From positions 64,001 to 128,000 of the IMG/VR virus record IMGVR_UViG_3300027734_003164: 64,000 nt of DNA; one strand, 5' to 3'. The stretch comes from a virus (lineage: Duplodnaviria > Caudoviricetes). A program made the position numbers and the translations under genes. Shown piece after piece: positions 392 through 18,331 of the stretch; positions within the stretch are counted from its first letter, which is position 1, and every line of letters begins with the position of its first letter. The notes below the pieces were generated by a model, which was given only the letters and a program-made list of their open reading frames with translations, ran no database searches and had not been told where the DNA came from.

Positions 392-2131
392 TTATGGAAG
401 TAAATCTTCTACAAAGTCCAAATACTGATAATCTTGATGGTATAAAATATCATTTTGCCAATTCTGTAGTTCAGGTGTTGGGTAATTCCAATGTGGAGTC
501 ATCGCAATTACTCTAGTCCCTTCGTGTTCCAAACTTTTGAATGTCGACTCTTGCTCAACAGTTTTACCATTACGATACTTTTTAACCATTTTTGGTAATT
601 TTAAAGTTCCGAGTTTGTAAAGTAAGTTAATATTTGCAAGTTGAATTTTAGCGACTTGTGAAAACTCTAACGATGGTGTTTCATTAAATCTAGCTCTTTC
701 TTGAACATTCAATATTTCATCTATTTTGTATCTATATTCCACAGTTATTCTATCGTCACCATCTGTTGAGTCTTTACGAATTGAGAATATTAAACAATCT
801 GGTCTTTCTGAATACCCTCGAACACAATTTCGTTGGTGTTGTGATTCTTTTTCATAGTCCGCAGTTTTTCTTAAAAGAACAGGATAATATGTTTCACCTT
901 CGTGTTCGATTGGTGTTTCTAAACTATCTACATCACCATAGAATCTTTCAACTTCACCTTTTCTGTACGATTGTAAAAGGCGACTGAACTCTTCATGTTC
1001 TAAATTAAAACTACTAATGTTTGTGAATTTGAATTTAACATCTTCTCCAAGATTCATTAAATTTTTTTTCATCTCTAAATGGTCAATTAAAGTTCTCCAT
1101 TTATAATGGTCAAAATATGGCATCAAATCTAAAATTCTATCTTTTTCTTTTGGAGTTAAAGGAACTAATGTTCTACTCAAGAAATATTGATTAAATTGTT
1201 CTTTATCTGAATAAAAACATTCAAAAGACCCACCCATTTGATTCATTTCCATTGGCATTGTCTCATCACCATAGTATGATTGAAATACTTTGTTTTCAAT
1301 TTTGTTAAACCTATCAATTCCCAAAAGATTATATGTTAGATACAATCTATCAAAATCAATCCATTCCATTTCATTAAAAATCTGTTTAACTTTTGACCCT
1401 TTTAAATTTAGTTTTTTCATTATTGAATCAACCAAATTCATATTTGATGATTTTAAATCTTTCTTTGGAATAAAAAAATAAGTGAATTTTTTCCAACTGT
1501 TTGGAATTTTAATTCCATTGACCAAATAATATGTTAAACTATAAAATGACTCCGGTGAATCCCACTTAAAATCCTGTGGATTTTCAATTCCTAATTTATC
1601 CCATATTTTTTCTAAAAAGAAAATAAAATGATTTTCAGGTTTTACGCTTTCATCAACATGAACACTTCTTAAAAAACTTCGAACCGCAACATAAGTTGGA
1701 TTAACTTTCATGCGAGCTCCCATTTTTTGTTTTTTCTTTGTGATAAATGTTCCTGAGTAGAACAATTTAGTTTTGAAATTAAATGAAAAATATTCTGTTG
1801 TTTTTCTTTCAACAAAAAACTTACCTCCGACTCTTCTTTGCTTTGTATATAATTGATACTTTAAGGAAATTTTATTTTCACTTTCTTCGATAAAAAATCT
1901 ATATCTTATTCTAAATACCGACGCGCAAGGGTTCCCGTAATGTTTAACAAAATCATCCTCAGAAAATAGTTGGGTGTCGGTATAAAACTTTTCTTTGTTT
2001 TTTGTAAAATGAACTGACTCATAACTGTTATTATGTTTTGAGTCAATATCACAGAAGTTTTTATAAAGTTCAACTCTGTAATTCTTTTTTTCAATAAACT
2101 TATGAAATGTTTTTCCTTCTACTTCTAACAT
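392..2131 (-). CDS. PcfJ-like domain protein
   Basis: C-terminal LLRKTADYEKESQHQRNCVRGY...IFSIR...RITVEY...QERARFNETP matches the PcfJ pattern (L..E...M/Q.HCV..Y...IFSIR...TIE...Q...N..P). Confidence 0.7.
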   Translation of the reverse strand: MLEVEGKTFHKFIEKKNYRVELYKNFCDIDSKHNNSYESVHFTKNKEKFYTDTQLFSEDDFVKHYGNPCASVFRIRYRFFIEESENKISLKYQLYTKQRRVGGKFFVERKTTEYFSFNFKTKLFYSGTFITKKKQKMGARMKVNPTYVAVRSFLRSVHVDESVKPENHFIFFLEKIWDKLGIENPQDFKWDSPESFYSLTYYLVNGIKIPNSWKKFTYFFIPKKDLKSSNMNLVDSIMKKLNLKGSKVKQIFNEMEWIDFDRLYLTYNLLGIDRFNKIENKVFQSYYGDETMPMEMNQMGGSFECFYSDKEQFNQYFLSRTLVPLTPKEKDRILDLMPYFDHYKWRTLIDHLEMKKNLMNLGEDVKFKFTNISSFNLEHEEFSRLLQSYRKGEVERFYGDVDSLETPIEHEGETYYPVLLRKTADYEKESQHQRNCVRGYSERPDCLIFSIRKDSTDGDDRITVEYRYKIDEILNVQERARFNETPSLEFSQVAKIQLANINLLYKLGTLKLPKMVKKYRNGKTVEQESTFKSLEHEGTRVIAMTPHWNYPTPELQNWQNDILYHQDYQYLDFVEDLLP

Positions 2132-12895: not shown

Positions 12896-13490
12896 ATTCT
12901 TCTAATAATTTTTCAAAATTGTTAAAATTGAAAGATGGGTTTATATCTCTACAGTTTGAATTGTAATTGCTTTTTGTTGCAACTCCGTTAAAGTTTTCAA
13001 CTCCCGATAATTTGACATTTGTTTTTGTTGTCTTTTTATCGATGTTAAACTTTTCACACAACTCATGTGTTAAAAAAACCAAACTTTCAATTTGTTTTTG
13101 AGTATATGGGTCCCAAAAAAATTGTTCTCTCCATTTTTTTTCAAAAACTTTCTCTTTATAAATATCACCTATCCAATTTAAATAGTTTGTTTCTATTGGT
13201 ATTTTTTTTAACCAAGTTAAATTCTCTAAAACAATAGTTATAGAGTTTTTGTCAACCGACTCATCACCTATGTAATTTGAATACATATTAGGTTCTGAAA
13301 TCATAAATATTTCACCACTTTTATTAATTAAATAATTAGGTAGATGTGGGTTATTTTGATTGTACCTGTGTAATAATGATTGTATATAAAATCTATAAGG
13401 CCTTTTAGTGTCGGCCAAAATTATTTGACTTTTTTTGTCGTTACGAGACAGAACTTCAGATTCTATTAATTTTGAAATTACCTGTATCAT
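12882..13490 (-). CDS. Amidase_2 / T7-lysozyme-fold protein with apparently substituted Zn ligands
   Basis: Spacing IIL..T / NYLINKSGEI / SITIVLEN / YTQKQIESL..L..ELCEKFNI / DINPSFNF follows N-acetylmuramoyl-L-alanine amidases. Confidence 0.7.
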   Translation of the reverse strand: MIQVISKLIESEVLSRNDKKSQIILADTKRPYRFYIQSLLHRYNQNNPHLPNYLINKSGEIFMISEPNMYSNYIGDESVDKNSITIVLENLTWLKKIPIETNYLNWIGDIYKEKVFEKKWREQFFWDPYTQKQIESLVFLTHELCEKFNIDKKTTKTNVKLSGVENFNGVATKSNYNSNCRDINPSFNFNNFEKLLEEYEPV

Positions 13491-14682
13491 TCTTAGTGTA
13501 TGAAAGTCTTCTATTTGTTATTGTTTGAGTTTCTTCTGTATTATTACTAATAATTTCTTCAGGTGTTTCCTCTACTTGAGGTTCAATTATTTCTTCCATG
13601 CCATCTTCTGTGACATCTTCTGTGACATCTTCTGTGACATCTTCAATCACTGGTTCTGTTTCTTCAGGAATCCATTCCCAACTATCATTAATACTTAATA
13701 AACTATCAGGAACATTGACTTCCTCTTCAACTTGGTGGGTAAGTTCGTGGGGAAGTTCATGGGGAAGTTCGTGGGTAACTTGGGGGGTGACTTGAGGGGT
13801 GACTTGAGGGGTGACTTGAGGGGTAACTTGGGGGGTAACTTGGGGGGTGACTTCTCGTTTTGGGGAATCATCTTCCTCATCTTTTCTATTATTTTTGAAT
13901 GCTTGGTTTGTTGCAATAACTAATGTAATAGCTAATGGGTCAAACACAAAAATTAAAATTAATATAAAGATGTTAGCGGTTTTTTTAACACTCCATCCGG
14001 TAAGTTCACTGATATATTTTATGGTTCCAAGTTCATTACCTGAAATCTCTTTTGATTCTAATTCAAGTACTTTTATATCTAATGCGGTAATACTGTCATT
14101 AAGAGCATCCACTTTACCTGACATTTTGTCACGATTTTCAATCGCCAATTCTAATTGTAATTCAAATGATTTACGATTTGCGTTATTTGCTCTTGTTACA
14201 ACCTGACCTGTTTGTCTATCCACACTTTGAGTTGTGGTGTTAGTTGATAAGGCGTTTCTTAATTTTGAGATGTCTTTATCTAATATTTGTTTTTCTTTTT
14301 GGTACTCGTTTTTAATTTCCTCAAATCTTTGTTTTTTTACTTCAATGTTTTTTACTTCCTTCTGACCGATTTCAAGTTTTGCGATATTGGTTGAAAATCC
14401 TGTACTTAAAAGTCCATATATCCCCAATGATGTAATAAGAGATAAAGTTACAAGAGCGACAGTCATATATAATTTTAATACTCCGTAAGTTTCTTTCCAC
14501 TTGTCGTGAAGATATGTTGCGATGGCAATTTTTGATAATTCTAAAAACCCACCCATAATTATTACAGGTAAAGCAACTCCAACAAACACAACGGATAAAC
14601 CAACAACACTATAATACGCCGCAGTTCCTGATAAACCGAGAGCACAAAACAACAAAAACCAAGGTAGTAATTTTTCTTTCAT
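13456..14682 (-). CDS. multi-pass membrane protein with coiled coil and C-terminal tetrapeptide repeats
   Basis: LSGTAAYYSVVGL...LELSKIA...ITSLGIYGLLS TM cluster, coiled coil, IFVFDPLAI TM, repeat-rich acidic tail. Confidence 0.8.
   Translation of the reverse strand: MKEKLLPWFLLFCALGLSGTAAYYSVVGLSVVFVGVALPVIIMGGFLELSKIAIATYLHDKWKETYGVLKLYMTVALVTLSLITSLGIYGLLSTGFSTNIAKLEIGQKEVKNIEVKKQRFEEIKNEYQKEKQILDKDISKLRNALSTNTTTQSVDRQTGQVVTRANNANRKSFELQLELAIENRDKMSGKVDALNDSITALDIKVLELESKEISGNELGTIKYISELTGWSVKKTANIFILILIFVFDPLAITLVIATNQAFKNNRKDEEDDSPKREVTPQVTPQVTPQVTPQVTPQVTPQVTHELPHELPHELTHQVEEEVNVPDSLLSINDSWEWIPEETEPVIEDVTEDVTEDVTEDGMEEIIEPQVEETPEEIISNNTEETQTITNRRLSYTKNDTGNFKINRI
13598..13645. repeat. 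12-bp tandem repeat (EDVT x3-4 in frame)
   Basis: catcttctgtga repeated. Confidence 0.9.
13735..13852. repeat. 12-bp tandem repeats (VTPQ x6, then HELP/HELT x3)
   Basis: ggggtgacttga / ggggtaacttgg / ggggaagttcgt units visible directly. Confidence 0.9.
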
Positions 14683-14715
14683 ATTAATAACTATAACAGA
14701 TAAATATTAAAGATA

Positions 14716-14744
14716 AATAAAACCCTCACCGGCGCCGATGAGGG
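14716..14744 (-). terminator. intrinsic terminator
   Basis: CCCTCATCGG-CG-CCGGTGAGGG hairpin followed by TTTTATTT on the minus strand. Confidence 0.75.
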
Positions 14745-14846
14745 AGTGTAGTTTCATTCTACCGTATAGATAGAATTGAGGATTCTCACCCAGGGCTCTT
14801 CGTGTCCCATTCCGCCGAGTTGTAAGGGTAATCTCGGTTCAACCCT
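14720..14846 (-). ncRNA. candidate structured ncRNA of unknown class
   Basis: GC-rich non-coding island with stems CCGAG/CTCGG, GGGTTGA/TCAATTC, TTCTATC/GGTAGAA, possible pseudoknot AGGGT/ACCCT, T-loop-like GGTGAGAATCC and a terminal terminator. Confidence 0.55.
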
Positions 14847-15384
14847 ATAAGTAAATAACTAATATGTTATTGCCTTTTATTCCTTCTATTGTAACTCTTT
14901 TTGATTTTTTTTCTTCAACATTAGTCTTTAAAAACTGACCATCATTTGAAAATGCAGATGTTATTATATTGAAAAAATTACCATCTTTATTTAGTAAAAT
15001 TTCAACATAATTAAAATGCTTGTCGTCTTCATTATCCTTTCTTTTTTTAACAAAAATAATTTGATTATTTTCAGGTTTTTCAGTTTCGAATGAATTATAA
15101 ATTTTTTCTAAACTATTTTCAAACAATTTTTTTATCATGGAGTCAGGAACTGCTATTCTTGGTGGTTGTACGTATTTTGAGCGTCTAGTTGCAAGATGGT
15201 CATTATACATATCAACTAAACTATCATAACTTTCTTTACCAAACCTTTCTTTTCTTTGGTGGTAAGTTGATTTTAATTGTATCAATTTATTATCTATGAT
15301 TTTAGAAAATAAAACCGTACCTCTATCTTTTTCTTTTTTAGATTCAACTATGATGATATTTTTTAATACGGATAATAAATTCAT
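14845..15384 (-). CDS. hypothetical protein (likely start MNLLSVLKNIIIVES at 15384)
   Basis: TATTTAT at 15390-15396 immediately precedes this ATG; the track's longer start runs through the terminator. Confidence 0.7.
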   Translation of the reverse strand: MNLLSVLKNIIIVESKKEKDRGTVLFSKIIDNKLIQLKSTYHQRKERFGKESYDSLVDMYNDHLATRRSKYVQPPRIAVPDSMIKKLFENSLEKIYNSFETEKPENNQIIFVKKRKDNEDDKHFNYVEILLNKDGNFFNIITSAFSNDGQFLKTNVEEKKSKRVTIEGIKGNNILVIYL

Positions 15385-15397
15385 ATCATATAAATAC

Positions 15398-15427
15398 AAA
15401 AAGGGTGAGAAAAATCCCACCCTTTTT
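15398..15427. terminator. intrinsic terminator (bidirectional form)
   Basis: AAAAAGGGTG-AGAAAAATCC-CACCCTTTTT inverted repeat. Confidence 0.85.
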
Positions 15428-15429
15428 AA

Positions 15430-15545
15430 TTTTCCCGTACCGATTAGAGGATTTTAAACCCGACACACTAACCGCGGTGTCACGACGACTTACGACCCCA
15501 GGAGTAAGCTTCCCGACAAACACTGATACATGTCTCATTGTTTGT
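15430..15545 (-). other. GC-rich short transcription unit (sRNA or 50-aa ORF 15386-15538)
   Basis: Bounded by a TAnnTTTG promoter and a terminator; hairpins GCTTAC/GTAAGT and GACAC/GTGTC; TGTCGGG occurs twice. Confidence 0.45.
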
Positions 15546-15549
15546 TATA

Positions 15550-15580
15550 CAAAGATAAGTGTTTTTTTTAAACTGCCAAA
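15550..15580 (-). promoter_or_regulatory. Bacteroidota housekeeping-type promoter
   Basis: -33 TTTG (15577-15580) and -7 TATCTTTG (15550-15557) with 19-nt spacing. Confidence 0.7.
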
Positions 15581-15587
15581 ACTTTTA

Positions 15588-16403
15588 TCATAAATATTCA
15601 AATAAATCTGAACATTCGTTTCGTAGTTTACGAAGAGCCTTTTCTTTGATTTGACGAACTCTTTCTTTTGTAAGACCAAAATCTGTACCAATATCTTCCA
15701 AAGTACGAGGTGTGCCGGTAATACCATAGTAATCCTCAATAATTACTTTTTCACGCTCATCCAATACTGACATAATTTCCATCATTTTAAGTTTGAGAGT
15801 GTCCTTTGTTGAAAACATTTCATCAGGTGAAACGATATTTTCATTTTTTATTACATCAATTAATGTGTCTCCGTCTTCATTGATGTGCATATCCAAATCA
15901 ACAATTTTTGGAAGTTGTGCAAACTTTGCGGATAATTCCCCGTTAGTTTTTTCCAAAACCTTTTTTTCTTTTTGCATATCTTGTACAACATTAACCGGAA
16001 GTCTGATTGTTCTTGAATTATCATTTAGTGATTGAAGGATTGATTGTTTAATCCACCAAACAGCATAAGAAATAAAACGGTTGTTTTTGGTCCAATCAAA
16101 ATTCTTAATGGCCTTTAATAGTCCATAGTTTCCTTCAGCAATTAAGTCTGATAGGTCAATACCTTGATTTTGATATTGTTTTGCCACGGTAATAACAAAA
16201 CGTAAGTTACCCTCTAAAAGTTCTTTATAGATTAACTCTTTTTCTCTTTCAGTACAGTTTTCATCTGTAATCATTTTTGAAAGGATTTTTTCCCTTTCAG
16301 GTGTCATTACTTTTAACTTTCGAATGTCTTTTAAATAAAGTTGAATTTCGTCTTGGTTAATCGGGTTTGAAGATTTAATTTCCTCGGTTTTCTCTCTTTC
16401 CAT
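15588..16403 (-). CDS. RNA polymerase sigma-70 factor, short RpoD-like (regions 1.2-4, no 1.1)
   Basis: DEIQLYLKDI, NLRFVITVAKQY, DLIAEGNYGLLKA..FD, RFISYAVWWIKQSI, RTIRLP, TLEDIG..FGLTKERVRQIKEKALRKLR. Confidence 0.93.
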   Translation of the reverse strand: MEREKTEEIKSSNPINQDEIQLYLKDIRKLKVMTPEREKILSKMITDENCTEREKELIYKELLEGNLRFVITVAKQYQNQGIDLSDLIAEGNYGLLKAIKNFDWTKNNRFISYAVWWIKQSILQSLNDNSRTIRLPVNVVQDMQKEKKVLEKTNGELSAKFAQLPKIVDLDMHINEDGDTLIDVIKNENIVSPDEMFSTKDTLKLKMMEIMSVLDEREKVIIEDYYGITGTPRTLEDIGTDFGLTKERVRQIKEKALRKLRNECSDLFEYL

Positions 16404-16974: not shown

Positions 16975-17523
16975 TTAAACTCGTTTTGAATATGATACAA
17001 TTTGGTAAAAATCCTTTTTTCCTTCACAATATTCTAACACCAAAGTTAATAATGTTTTGAACATGTAAGCGTCTTTTGTTTGTTTTTCGCAGATGGTAAA
17101 TAACTCAATAAAACTCACAAGGGTGTCCATCTTATAATACCCATGATTGTCTAAAACATCGAACTCATATAAATGTTTTTTGTAAAAATTAAGTTCGTAA
17201 CTATTTCTTTCTTCTGTGTTGTTGAATGGTTCCGTTGTTTCATACAAAGATAATACTTTTTTTACAAACTTACCAACAATCACTTTATTATATTCACATT
17301 TTACTAAAAGGTCAGTAATCCAGTGCGTATGACTTGGTGTTCTTAAACGTTTGTTAGTTTCTTTGTATTTTACAATAAAGTCAAGTTCAGGATTTTCACC
17401 TCTTGAACCTTGGTATGTCGCAACCATAGTTCCGTCTACCATTGTATACGTAGAAATTGGTGAAAAGGTTACACCTTTTTTAGTATAAGTTAGGGTCATA
17501 ATTTTATTTTTTTTATAAATCAA
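16975..17523 (-). CDS. hypothetical protein coupled to the EcoRI-like gene
   Basis: 11-nt overlap with the endonuclease stop; FIVKYKETNKRLRTPSHTHWITDLLVK motif. Confidence 0.75.
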   Translation of the reverse strand: MIYKKNKIMTLTYTKKGVTFSPISTYTMVDGTMVATYQGSRGENPELDFIVKYKETNKRLRTPSHTHWITDLLVKCEYNKVIVGKFVKKVLSLYETTEPFNNTEERNSYELNFYKKHLYEFDVLDNHGYYKMDTLVSFIELFTICEKQTKDAYMFKTLLTLVLEYCEGKKDFYQIVSYSKRV

Positions 17524-18331
17524 TACTTAATATTTCAAGGGAAGTTTTTGAAACTTCTAACATAATATCCAACATTTCAATATTGTTCCACTTATCACCA
17601 TTTCCTTTTGTGTAAATAGATGCGCTTTGTAAAACACGTAATACCGTACCATTTTTAGTTATGGATTTGTTTTTACACAAATTAGTATTTATTGGCATTC
17701 CATAATTTAAAGCAGTCAACCTATCCAATCTGTTTAATGTACCAGAGTTTGATGATAGAGTTACGTCTCTACCATCAGGTCTTGTTATGGAAATTGTTTC
17801 TGTCAAAAAATTTGAACCTTCTAAAAACAAAATATATGGAAAATGTGATTCAGAAATCATTAAGTTACGAGTTTCAATTATATTTTTTGGAGCTCTTTCA
17901 ATTGCGTTTCCAGCCACCATTAAGTCTTGATTGGATAATTTACCAACTAAAACCCCCTTTTTTATATTTTCAATATCCTTTCCTTGAAACTTTGCTTCCG
18001 TAATTAAAACTATCCTCCAATCACCATTTTTATCTTTTACTTCAATTATTCCACCGTCTGGTTTAATACATGACTTAGACACAAAAAGGGTTTGACCTAA
18101 TTCGGAGTCCATTTTTTTTAAAGAGTCATTTATTTCTTTTTTAGATACGCTTTTTCTATATCTAAAAGTAAGATGGGGGTATTCCTCTTTTATTTTTTTT
18201 AATACGTGAGTTGTAGTATTATCAACACTCGATTCGTGGATTTTTGCATCATCTCCAAAAATACCATCAACACCTTGAGTCTTTTTATGTTGGTCCGTTA
18301 ATCTTTTTGATTGTTTATTTTTGATGGTCAT
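17513..18331 (-). CDS. type II restriction endonuclease, EcoRI family
   Basis: Colinear with EcoRI as recalled: QGVDGIFGD, IKPDGG (D91), TEAK (E111/K113), GNAIER (N141/E144/R145), HFPYILFLEGSNF, LNRLDRL (R200/R203), NYGMPIN. Confidence 0.93.
   Translation of the reverse strand: MTIKNKQSKRLTDQHKKTQGVDGIFGDDAKIHESSVDNTTTHVLKKIKEEYPHLTFRYRKSVSKKEINDSLKKMDSELGQTLFVSKSCIKPDGGIIEVKDKNGDWRIVLITEAKFQGKDIENIKKGVLVGKLSNQDLMVAGNAIERAPKNIIETRNLMISESHFPYILFLEGSNFLTETISITRPDGRDVTLSSNSGTLNRLDRLTALNYGMPINTNLCKNKSITKNGTVLRVLQSASIYTKGNGDKWNNIEMLDIMLEVSKTSLEILSIDL

Follow-up and report, generated by a model that had tools for sequence, protein, structure and literature searches.

The DNA analyzed here, hereafter called the window, is a 64,000-nucleotide (64-kb) stretch of a Caudoviricetes virus (IMG/VR record IMGVR_UViG_3300027734_003164, positions 64,001 to 128,000 of the record; positions below are counted from the first letter of the stretch). 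At 14719-14846 on its minus strand it contains a structured RNA of ~128 nt, designated nc2, which is located in a variable region between a gene for a phage sigma-70-family factor and the genes for a membrane protein and an amidase. In the window this region also holds an orphan gene, C8, and a second small RNA, nc1 (Table 1). nc2 is a real, very strongly conserved structured small RNA and is catalogued in no RNA family. An earlier note, made from the sequence alone, had quoted the minus strand of 14716-14848 and proposed a novel structured noncoding RNA (ncRNA) that matched no known riboswitch or ribozyme and was richer in G+C than its surroundings, and both points were borne out. No Rfam 15 family matched anywhere in the window at the gathering score, and a search of 14600-14950 with E-values up to 10 returned only noise well under that score. 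G+C content is 0.48 across the element and 0.45 in 14740-14859, compared with 0.22-0.33 in the flanks. As a single sequence, nc2 did not fold better than its shuffles (z = -1.08); thus, the case for it rests on the comparison of copies and not on thermodynamics. The true 5' end may be a few nucleotides further upstream.

Homologs of nc2 were found in about 90 IMG/VR phage contigs, which contain 64 distinct copies. The virus record nearest to the region is 99% identical, and blastn of the region against 50,697 cultured-phage records gave no match. To sample loci independently of the RNA, we used the downstream 408-aa membrane protein as bait, which yielded 80 related IMG/VR loci; by blastn, nc2 was present in 63 of 88 loci at 78-98% identity. 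A pattern scan of viral contigs, in which the bases of the P2 stem were left unconstrained, detected nc2 in 90 contigs. A covariance model (R1) built from 39 distinct copies (alignment A1) scored the window copy at 153.5 bits (cmsearch, 14717-14853) and confirmed the scanned viral copies, of which divergent ones scored 59-81 bits. The core pattern occurred at 12 places in 185,579 species genomes, about the chance expectation, and only one of the 12 was a true copy, on a 5.7-kb contig binned in a Crocinitomicaceae metagenome-assembled genome (MAG) from Lake Mendota. The covariance model found no nc2 in 150 further Bacteroidia genomes. As far as sampled, nc2 is phage-specific, and its carriers are large uncultured freshwater (lake) phages, probably with hosts among Bacteroidota.

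The structure was tested on the 64 distinct sequences (alignment A5). In the consensus structure 98.2% of cells were paired and 18 pairs were changed on both sides (214 such cells). None of 500 shuffles matched its score, no slid register approached it either, and abundant G-U pairs fixed the strand. At its 5' end the RNA folds into an H-type pseudoknot; three hairpins and then an intrinsic terminator come after it. The pseudoknot AGGGT/ACCCT had previously been offered only as an alternative and proved to be the supported fold. Its terminal pair varies (A-U in 34 copies, U-A in 22, other in 8), and its four inner pairs are invariant. The terminal pair is switched also between copies with only 3-6 other differences, such as the window copy and that of locus L114, indicating that the switch arose several times. 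The P2 stem CCGAG/CTCGG with its 13-nt loop, also predicted earlier, is present and did not vary in any of the distinct copies, despite the freedom that the scan had left to its five bases; covariation is therefore impossible in this stem. Likewise, the 32-nt pseudoknot core, GGGUUGAACCGAGAUUACCCnnACAACUCGG, barely varies. Because the inner pseudoknot pairs and P2 never vary, this core must be constrained in sequence and not in structure alone.

The hairpins in the 3' part of the fold are variable. Of the elements in the earlier proposal, GGG/CCC (P3), the 'further hairpin' (P5) and the terminator all showed compensatory changes. All four pairs of P3 had changes on both sides (e.g., GC 39, UA 17, AU 7). 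The outer pair of P4 was AU in 33 copies, GU in 21 and GC in 9. P5 is short or missing in divergent copies, such as those of L182 and L128. The conserved single-stranded segment that follows it, GAAACUACACU, had no complementary site in the window except its own antisense site. Other parts of the proposal had to be given up. The closing stem GGGTTGA/TCAATTC around a multi-way junction was without compensatory change, and the columns of its three outer pairs covary as part of P5. The element described as T-loop-like is a hairpin (P4) with compensatory change, but its likeness to a T-loop was lost, as the loop becomes CUGACAA, GUGGUAA or a GGAA tetraloop in divergent copies. More generally, the tRNA-like features (D-loop and T-loop) were not conserved, and ARAGORN detected no tRNA, tmRNA or tRNA-like gene in the window. 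A long-range stem GGUU/AACU predicted by RNAalifold was also rejected: its only change was G-C to G-U, divergent copies have lost it, and it is incompatible with the covarying pseudoknot.

Table 1. nc2, its structural parts and neighboring genes in the window (pairing partners are given as window positions)
Feature	Position	Strand	Remarks
nc2, whole structured small RNA	14719-14846	-	From first pseudoknot nucleotide to end of terminator T-tract
Pseudoknot stem, 5' strand AGGGU	14842-14846	-	Pairs with 14825-14829
Pseudoknot stem, 3' strand ACCCU, within P2 loop	14825-14829	-	Pairs with 14842-14846
P2, 5' strand CCGAG	14833-14837	-	Pairs with 14815-14819; invariant in 64 distinct copies
P2, 3' strand CUCGG	14815-14819	-	Pairs with 14833-14837
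P3 hairpin GGGA...GCCC, conserved loop motif ACGA	14793-14808	-	14808-14805 with 14796-14793
P4 hairpin GGG-UGAGAAU-CCU	14779-14791	-	14791-14789 with 14781-14779; one pair covaries
P5 hairpin AUUCUAU...GUAGAAU	14756-14776	-	14776-14770 with 14762-14756; four pairs changed on both sides
Conserved single-stranded segment between P5 and terminator	14745-14755	-	Nearly invariant in main clade
Intrinsic terminator, 9-bp stem, 4-nt loop, TTTT	14719-14744	-	Consensus scan at 14744-14723; 8/9 pairs covary
Membrane protein, 408 aa, usual downstream neighbor of nc2	13456-14682	-	
C8, orphan open reading frame (ORF), 180 aa	14845-15387	-	Stop codon overlaps first G of nc2
nc1, second conserved small RNA (~150 nt)	15397-15545	-	Directly upstream of C8
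Phage sigma-70-family factor	15588-16403	-	Pfam Sigma70_r2 and Sigma70_r4

As judged from motifs, nc2 usually appears to have its own promoter and would be an independently expressed unit. In many copies, TAnnTTTG, which we take to be the -7 promoter motif of Bacteroidota, is located 19-31 nt upstream of the GGG of nc2, with, in many of them, a TTTG box at a greater distance. Where nc2 abuts the sigma-factor gene, TATTTAT is found 11-13 nt before the RNA, and the window copy is preceded by a weaker promoter-like TTATTTAC. The element had been said to follow directly after a stop codon. This is the case in the window, where the TAG of ORF 14845-15387 overlaps the first G, but the arrangement is incidental, since other phages have a different gene upstream or carry the element alone; in many relatives nc2 begins 2-5 nt past the stop codon of the sigma factor. 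In about half of the loci, the membrane-protein gene follows on the same strand 35-70 nt after nc2, and the stop codon of the sigma factor or C8 abuts the element. The next gene is convergent, on the opposite strand, in 29 of the 63 distinct nc2 contexts. In divergent neighborhoods, neither neighbor shares the strand of nc2, the downstream gene being convergent, so that nc2 stands alone. This speaks against a general role as a leader, riboswitch or recoding signal. A stop-codon readthrough or frameshift signal was rejected for the additional reasons that a second stop occurs one codon later in the window and that the spacing to the upstream stop varies among phages. We also considered a group I intron with an inserted ORF, as G+C-rich islands flank ORF 14845-15387. 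This was rejected as well, because both islands come with promoter-like sites and terminators of their own, and the genes on either side are intact.

In 29 of the 63 distinct contexts, nc2 is located tail-to-tail with a member of an orphan protein family, C4 (125-151 aa, alignment A3). The 29 include three divergent, rearranged neighborhoods to which only the RNA had led. Most contexts have nc2 and C4 convergent, and two (L014 and L154) have them divergent. Among the 80 loci sampled by the unrelated membrane protein, C4 was present in 35. nc2 occurred with C4 in 25 loci, alone in 21 and with nc1 and C8 in nine; nc1 and C8 occurred without nc2 in two, C8 alone in one and C4 without nc2 in ten, and the remaining 12 had none of the four. 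Six of the ten C4 loci without nc2 have another small-RNA gene, nc3, two have a further one, nc4, and two are at contig ends, where one retains the 3' part of nc2 and the other is not assessable. Thus, every assessable C4 gene adjoins a small-RNA gene, usually nc2. In a maximum-likelihood tree of C4, proteins with nc2 as partner were found in both deep halves and those with nc3 and nc4 were nested inside; the partner labels required 4 changes on this tree, compared with a mean of 8.6 when shuffled.

The two replacing RNAs may be described briefly. nc3 is a third small-RNA type (L015:1930-2110, plus strand; also in L050, L059, L060, L061 and L062) with a TAnnTTTG motif and visible compensatory changes; beside a subclade of C4 it occupies the tail-to-tail position otherwise taken by nc2. 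nc4 is a ~70 nt small-RNA gene of the promoter-hairpin-terminator type (L047 and L048, about 1950-2035, plus strand). It replaces nc2 beside another C4 subclade, whose proteins have an acidic C-terminal tail.

Searches of Pfam, PHROG, PADLOC and the PDB sequences gave no match to C4. In a set of 5.8 billion proteins the family makes up 183 clusters, none with a Pfam domain on record; at the source these are named 'hypothetical protein' and, in a few cases, 'P2-related tail formation protein'. The nearest Atlas clusters are all viral, none of 401 Bacteroidia genomes contains C4, and both C4 and nc2 were found in phage DNA only. A host origin or mimicry was rejected because of the absence of C4 from these 401 genomes and the genome counts given above for nc2. 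The AlphaFold2 (AF2) model of C4 is confident, with a predicted local distance difference test score (pLDDT) of 83.7. Foldseek with this model gave nothing significant (E 0.1 or worse), and an exhaustive VIA-align search gave weak matches with Z of 3.1-5.7, under the level considered reliable (Z 8). Many of these weak matches are RNase toxins, namely RelE, ParE, HigB, YafQ, YoeB, BrnT, CdiA-CT and T4 RegB. RNases of the RelE/ParE/RegB kind share the BECR fold, in which a four-stranded antiparallel sheet is packed against helices. In all C4 copies compared, whichever the partner, Glu15, His38 and Gln134 do not vary, and Thr118 is replaced only once, by Ser. In a non-significant hhalign alignment with RegB (probability 0.2%), Glu15 falls on Glu19 and His38-x3-Arg42 on His48-x3-Arg52, and His48 of RegB is catalytic (PMC3014915). 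We regard C4 as a likely RegB/RelE-like RNase.

A C4 homolog with 40% identity was also detected in a 635-kb uncultured phage, LR745206.1 (L193, 314044-316851), and there no RNA lies beside it. In place of the RNA, a 63-aa acidic ORF overlaps the start of the C4 homolog, which faces a convergent 363-aa protein with S1 RNA-binding domains (Pfam S1, E 4e-22). As RegB is described as requiring ribosomal protein S1 (PMC1702504), this neighbor is suggestive. In the lake phages, C4 lies ~50 nt from the divergent membrane-protein gene, which leaves no room for a protein antitoxin.

Neither the window nor its nearest records contain C4; here the gene that adjoins nc2 is C8. C8 belongs to no Pfam, PHROG or PADLOC family, the Atlas returned nothing, and a search of 1.8 billion representatives (E up to 1e-10) gave about 35 clusters at 50% identity. 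Its AF2 model was unusable (pLDDT 38). In a deeper alignment (A7), which was used for residue conservation and for hhalign, His43, Arg48, Glu129 and Ser144 were invariant, a Thr-Ser was conserved, and so was the N-terminal helix 'LL..LK..ILE', which resembles that of C4. The comparison of C8 with C4 by hhalign gave a probability of 32% (E 5e-4) over the N-terminal helix and the His/Arg motif. C8 may thus be a distant relative of the RNase-like C4 family. TATTTATA is located 4 nt before its ATG. The adjacent, highly conserved nc1 has a promoter-like site at 15552-15579 (TTGGCA-16-TATCTT, containing TAtcTTTG) and a 14-bp terminator at 15397-15428; no Rfam family matched it. Among the 80 sampled loci, nc1 was found only beside C8 (11/11). 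With promoter, nc1, terminator and C8 in this order, the locus has the layout of type III toxin-antitoxin systems except for the repeats. The linkage of C4 with small-RNA genes is strong, and that of C8 probably likewise. The nc2 copy of the window would be either an orphan antidote or one that serves C8.

A 292-kb genome that is 99% complete (G404) shows a different distribution of these genes. It has an orphan nc2 at 41.8 kb and no C4, and its C8 homolog is far from nc2, at 267 kb, followed by a different small RNA on the same strand. The latter (L195:290-445, minus strand; G404:C1 about 266790-266945) has TAtcTTTG and a terminator and contains GGUUGAAAAUCC.

Several other features of the neighborhood were recorded. 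Conserved TATCTTTA and TATCTGTT motifs occur in the 35 nt that separate the nc2 terminator from the ATG of the membrane protein (14683-14722, minus strand, and relatives). They probably provide the membrane-protein gene with a promoter of its own, overlapping the terminator T-tract. Within that gene, a second G+C island (0.48-0.54; 13720-13899, minus strand) is coding and not an RNA: it encodes seven TPQV peptide repeats and then repeats of the HELP/HELT type, and in relatives this stretch carries other, acidic repeats. At 17513-18331 on the minus strand, the phage encodes a restriction endonuclease of the EcoRI family in full length (Pfam PF02963, E 4e-125). In some related phages, the variable slot beside nc2 contains ORFs that resemble cytosine-5 methyltransferases, named so by sequence motifs.

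What might nc2 do? Our tentative proposal, to which we would give somewhat less than an even chance, is that nc2 is an RNA partner or inhibitor of phage RNases, similar in working to type III antitoxins but outside that family. nc2 would be an independently expressed, trans-acting structured small RNA that binds small phage endoribonuclease-like proteins (C4, possibly C8), and the binding would hold their RNase activity in check as a type III RNA antitoxin does. The invariant pseudoknot would be the surface recognized by the protein, perhaps as a mimic of its substrate. The RNA is conserved, its fold covaries and its gene is linked to C4, and from this we infer that C4 may be an RNase which nc2 binds and inhibits. 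The strong linkage, together with the swapping of partners (including one protein partner), fits a toxin-antidote or enzyme-regulator pair best. A bolder version of the proposal, which we consider possible but doubtful, is that nc2 is the founding member of a class of RNA antidotes in which a single-copy, non-repeated pseudoknot silences phage RNases of the RegB/RelE fold, the orphan copies, like that of the window, providing immunity against the RNases of competing related phages. It would then resolve a long-standing question, whether RegB-like phage RNases have an 'anti-RNase' partner.

Several observations weigh against this proposal. Neither C4 nor C8 is found alongside nc2 in 21 of the 55 sampled nc2 loci, and nc2 is almost unchanged in them; G404, although nearly complete, has nc2 without C4, and its C8 homolog is far off with a different small RNA. 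As nc2 is kept without an adjacent RNase, it must be useful on its own. The RNA core is invariant while C4 falls to 27% identity, which one would not usually expect of a co-evolving pair. As variable genes have a hot-spot between the sigma-factor and membrane-protein genes, adjacency may be partly a matter of position. In addition, the fold matches of C4 are below Z 8, Foldseek and all sequence-profile searches with it were not significant, and the homology of C8 to C4 is no more than suggestive. The orphan copies may reflect either a second role independent of C4 or immunity against RNases of related co-infecting phages, the latter being speculation.

Alternatively, nc2 may act in trans on another target, for example on the ribosome, a host protein, mRNAs of the host or phage, or RNA polymerase carrying the phage sigma factor. 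The RNase-like genes would then have become its neighbors only through a recombination hot-spot and the convenient two-way terminator that small-RNA genes supply. The persistence of nc2 without C4 or C8 in the 21 loci and, without C4, in a near-complete genome would then be expected. An invariant 32-nt core beside strongly diverging proteins would suit a target that is itself fixed, for instance a host machine, and nc2 is located 2-5 nt past the sigma-factor gene in many phages. However, position alone can hardly explain why every assessable C4 gene has beside it a small-RNA gene of one of three unrelated types or, once, a gene for a small protein, and the conserved single-stranded segment has no complementary target within the window. 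We consider this explanation rather unlikely.

The linkage of C4 to small-RNA genes would be expected equally if nc2 were a substrate or guide of the RNase, that is, if C4 processed nc2 to an active form or found its targets with it, and type III toxins do process their RNA partners (PMC5086642). However, nc2 has neither repeats nor obvious processing sites and shows no complementarity to the rest of the window, and its orphan copies would have no enzyme acting on them. Such a role therefore seems quite improbable. A cis-acting role, either as a riboswitch-like leader that controls the membrane-protein gene through the terminator or as a 3'-UTR (untranslated region) stability element of the upstream gene (sigma factor, or C8 in the window), is suggested by the resemblance of the compact, conserved pseudoknotted core and the terminator to an aptamer with its expression platform. 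It is also in line with the same-strand membrane gene and abutting upstream stop codon in about half of the loci, and with alternative pairings of the 5' GGG (with pyrimidines at alignment columns 79-81, or with AAACU). However, the next gene is convergent in nearly half of the contexts, and divergent ones have the upstream gene on the opposite strand, leaving the element alone; promoter-like motifs are present both ahead of nc2 and in the gap between its terminator and the membrane gene; inspection by eye revealed no conserved anti-terminator pairing; and no Rfam riboswitch matched. Control in cis thus appears very unlikely. Finally, a self-cleaving ribozyme or other catalytic RNA, which the many conserved unpaired nucleotides of the invariant pseudoknotted core might bring to mind, seems most improbable, as no Rfam ribozyme family matched and nc2 has no repeat or rolling-circle context.

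If the proposed pairing of nc2 with C4 is true, RNA control of protein toxins would extend to the RelE/RegB fold, which to our knowledge has so far been found with protein antitoxins only. Such modules would also work inside large phage genomes and not as host defense, and it would become testable whether phage RNases like RegB have an inhibitor, as has been asked in work on T4 (PMC3014915). Whatever its function, nc2 represents an RNA family as yet uncatalogued; its 32-nt pseudoknot core is near-constant amid divergence, and this makes nc2 well suited for structural work and an Rfam entry.

The systems most similar in appearance are type III toxin-antitoxin loci (ToxIN, CptIN, TenpIN and AbiQ/antiQ). 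As in nc2/C4, a pseudoknotted ncRNA lies beside a small endoribonuclease-like protein with a Rho-independent terminator between the two, the partners look cognate and the context is phage-related. However, the type III antitoxin RNA is a tandem array of short repeats of about 34-40 nt, and the operon consists of a promoter, the RNA repeats, a Rho-independent terminator and the toxin gene on the same strand (PMC5086642). nc2 is single-copy, and Tandem Repeats Finder detected no array in nc2 or nc1. nc2 and C4 are usually convergent with separate promoters instead of forming one operon. C4 and C8, as noted, belong to no known family, and the weak fold matches of C4 are of the RelE/ParE/RegB kind and not of the ToxN/CptN/TenpN kind. 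Moreover, nc2 occurs in large phage genomes and has many orphan copies. Lacking the repeats, the operon layout and the toxin family, nc2 is not a type III member despite the similarity of its proposed working.

By analogy, single-RNA antitoxins would be the closest functional counterparts of nc2. RCd22, a single structured small RNA beside the toxin gene abiF in a Clostridioides difficile prophage, neutralizes the protein by direct binding (PMC12373285). AvcI, a non-repeat RNA antitoxin beside the gene for AvcD, is likewise described as binding and neutralizing its protein toxin (PMC10511110). The proteins of these systems, Abi_2/AbiD/F and a deoxycytidylate deaminase, are unrelated to C4. nc2 also differs from RCd22 in that it has no abiF motif, which we take to be among the Rfam families that gave no match.

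T4 RegB, an endoribonuclease of the RelE/YoeB fold with an extra first helix, resembles C4 in being phage-encoded; the C4 model likewise has an extra N-terminal helix and weakly matches RegB at Z 4.0, with a root-mean-square deviation (rmsd) of 4.6 over 97 residues. The two differ in that they have no significant sequence or profile similarity. We know of no RNA partner of RegB. A review of T4 merely raises the possibility of an anti-RegB partner (PMC3014915). Type II systems such as RelBE and ParDE have toxins of the kind of fold that C4 weakly matches, and a small acidic ORF that overlaps the start of the toxin gene, as is also found with the C4 homolog of LR745206.1. They differ from the lake phages, in which a small-RNA gene takes the place of the protein antitoxin.

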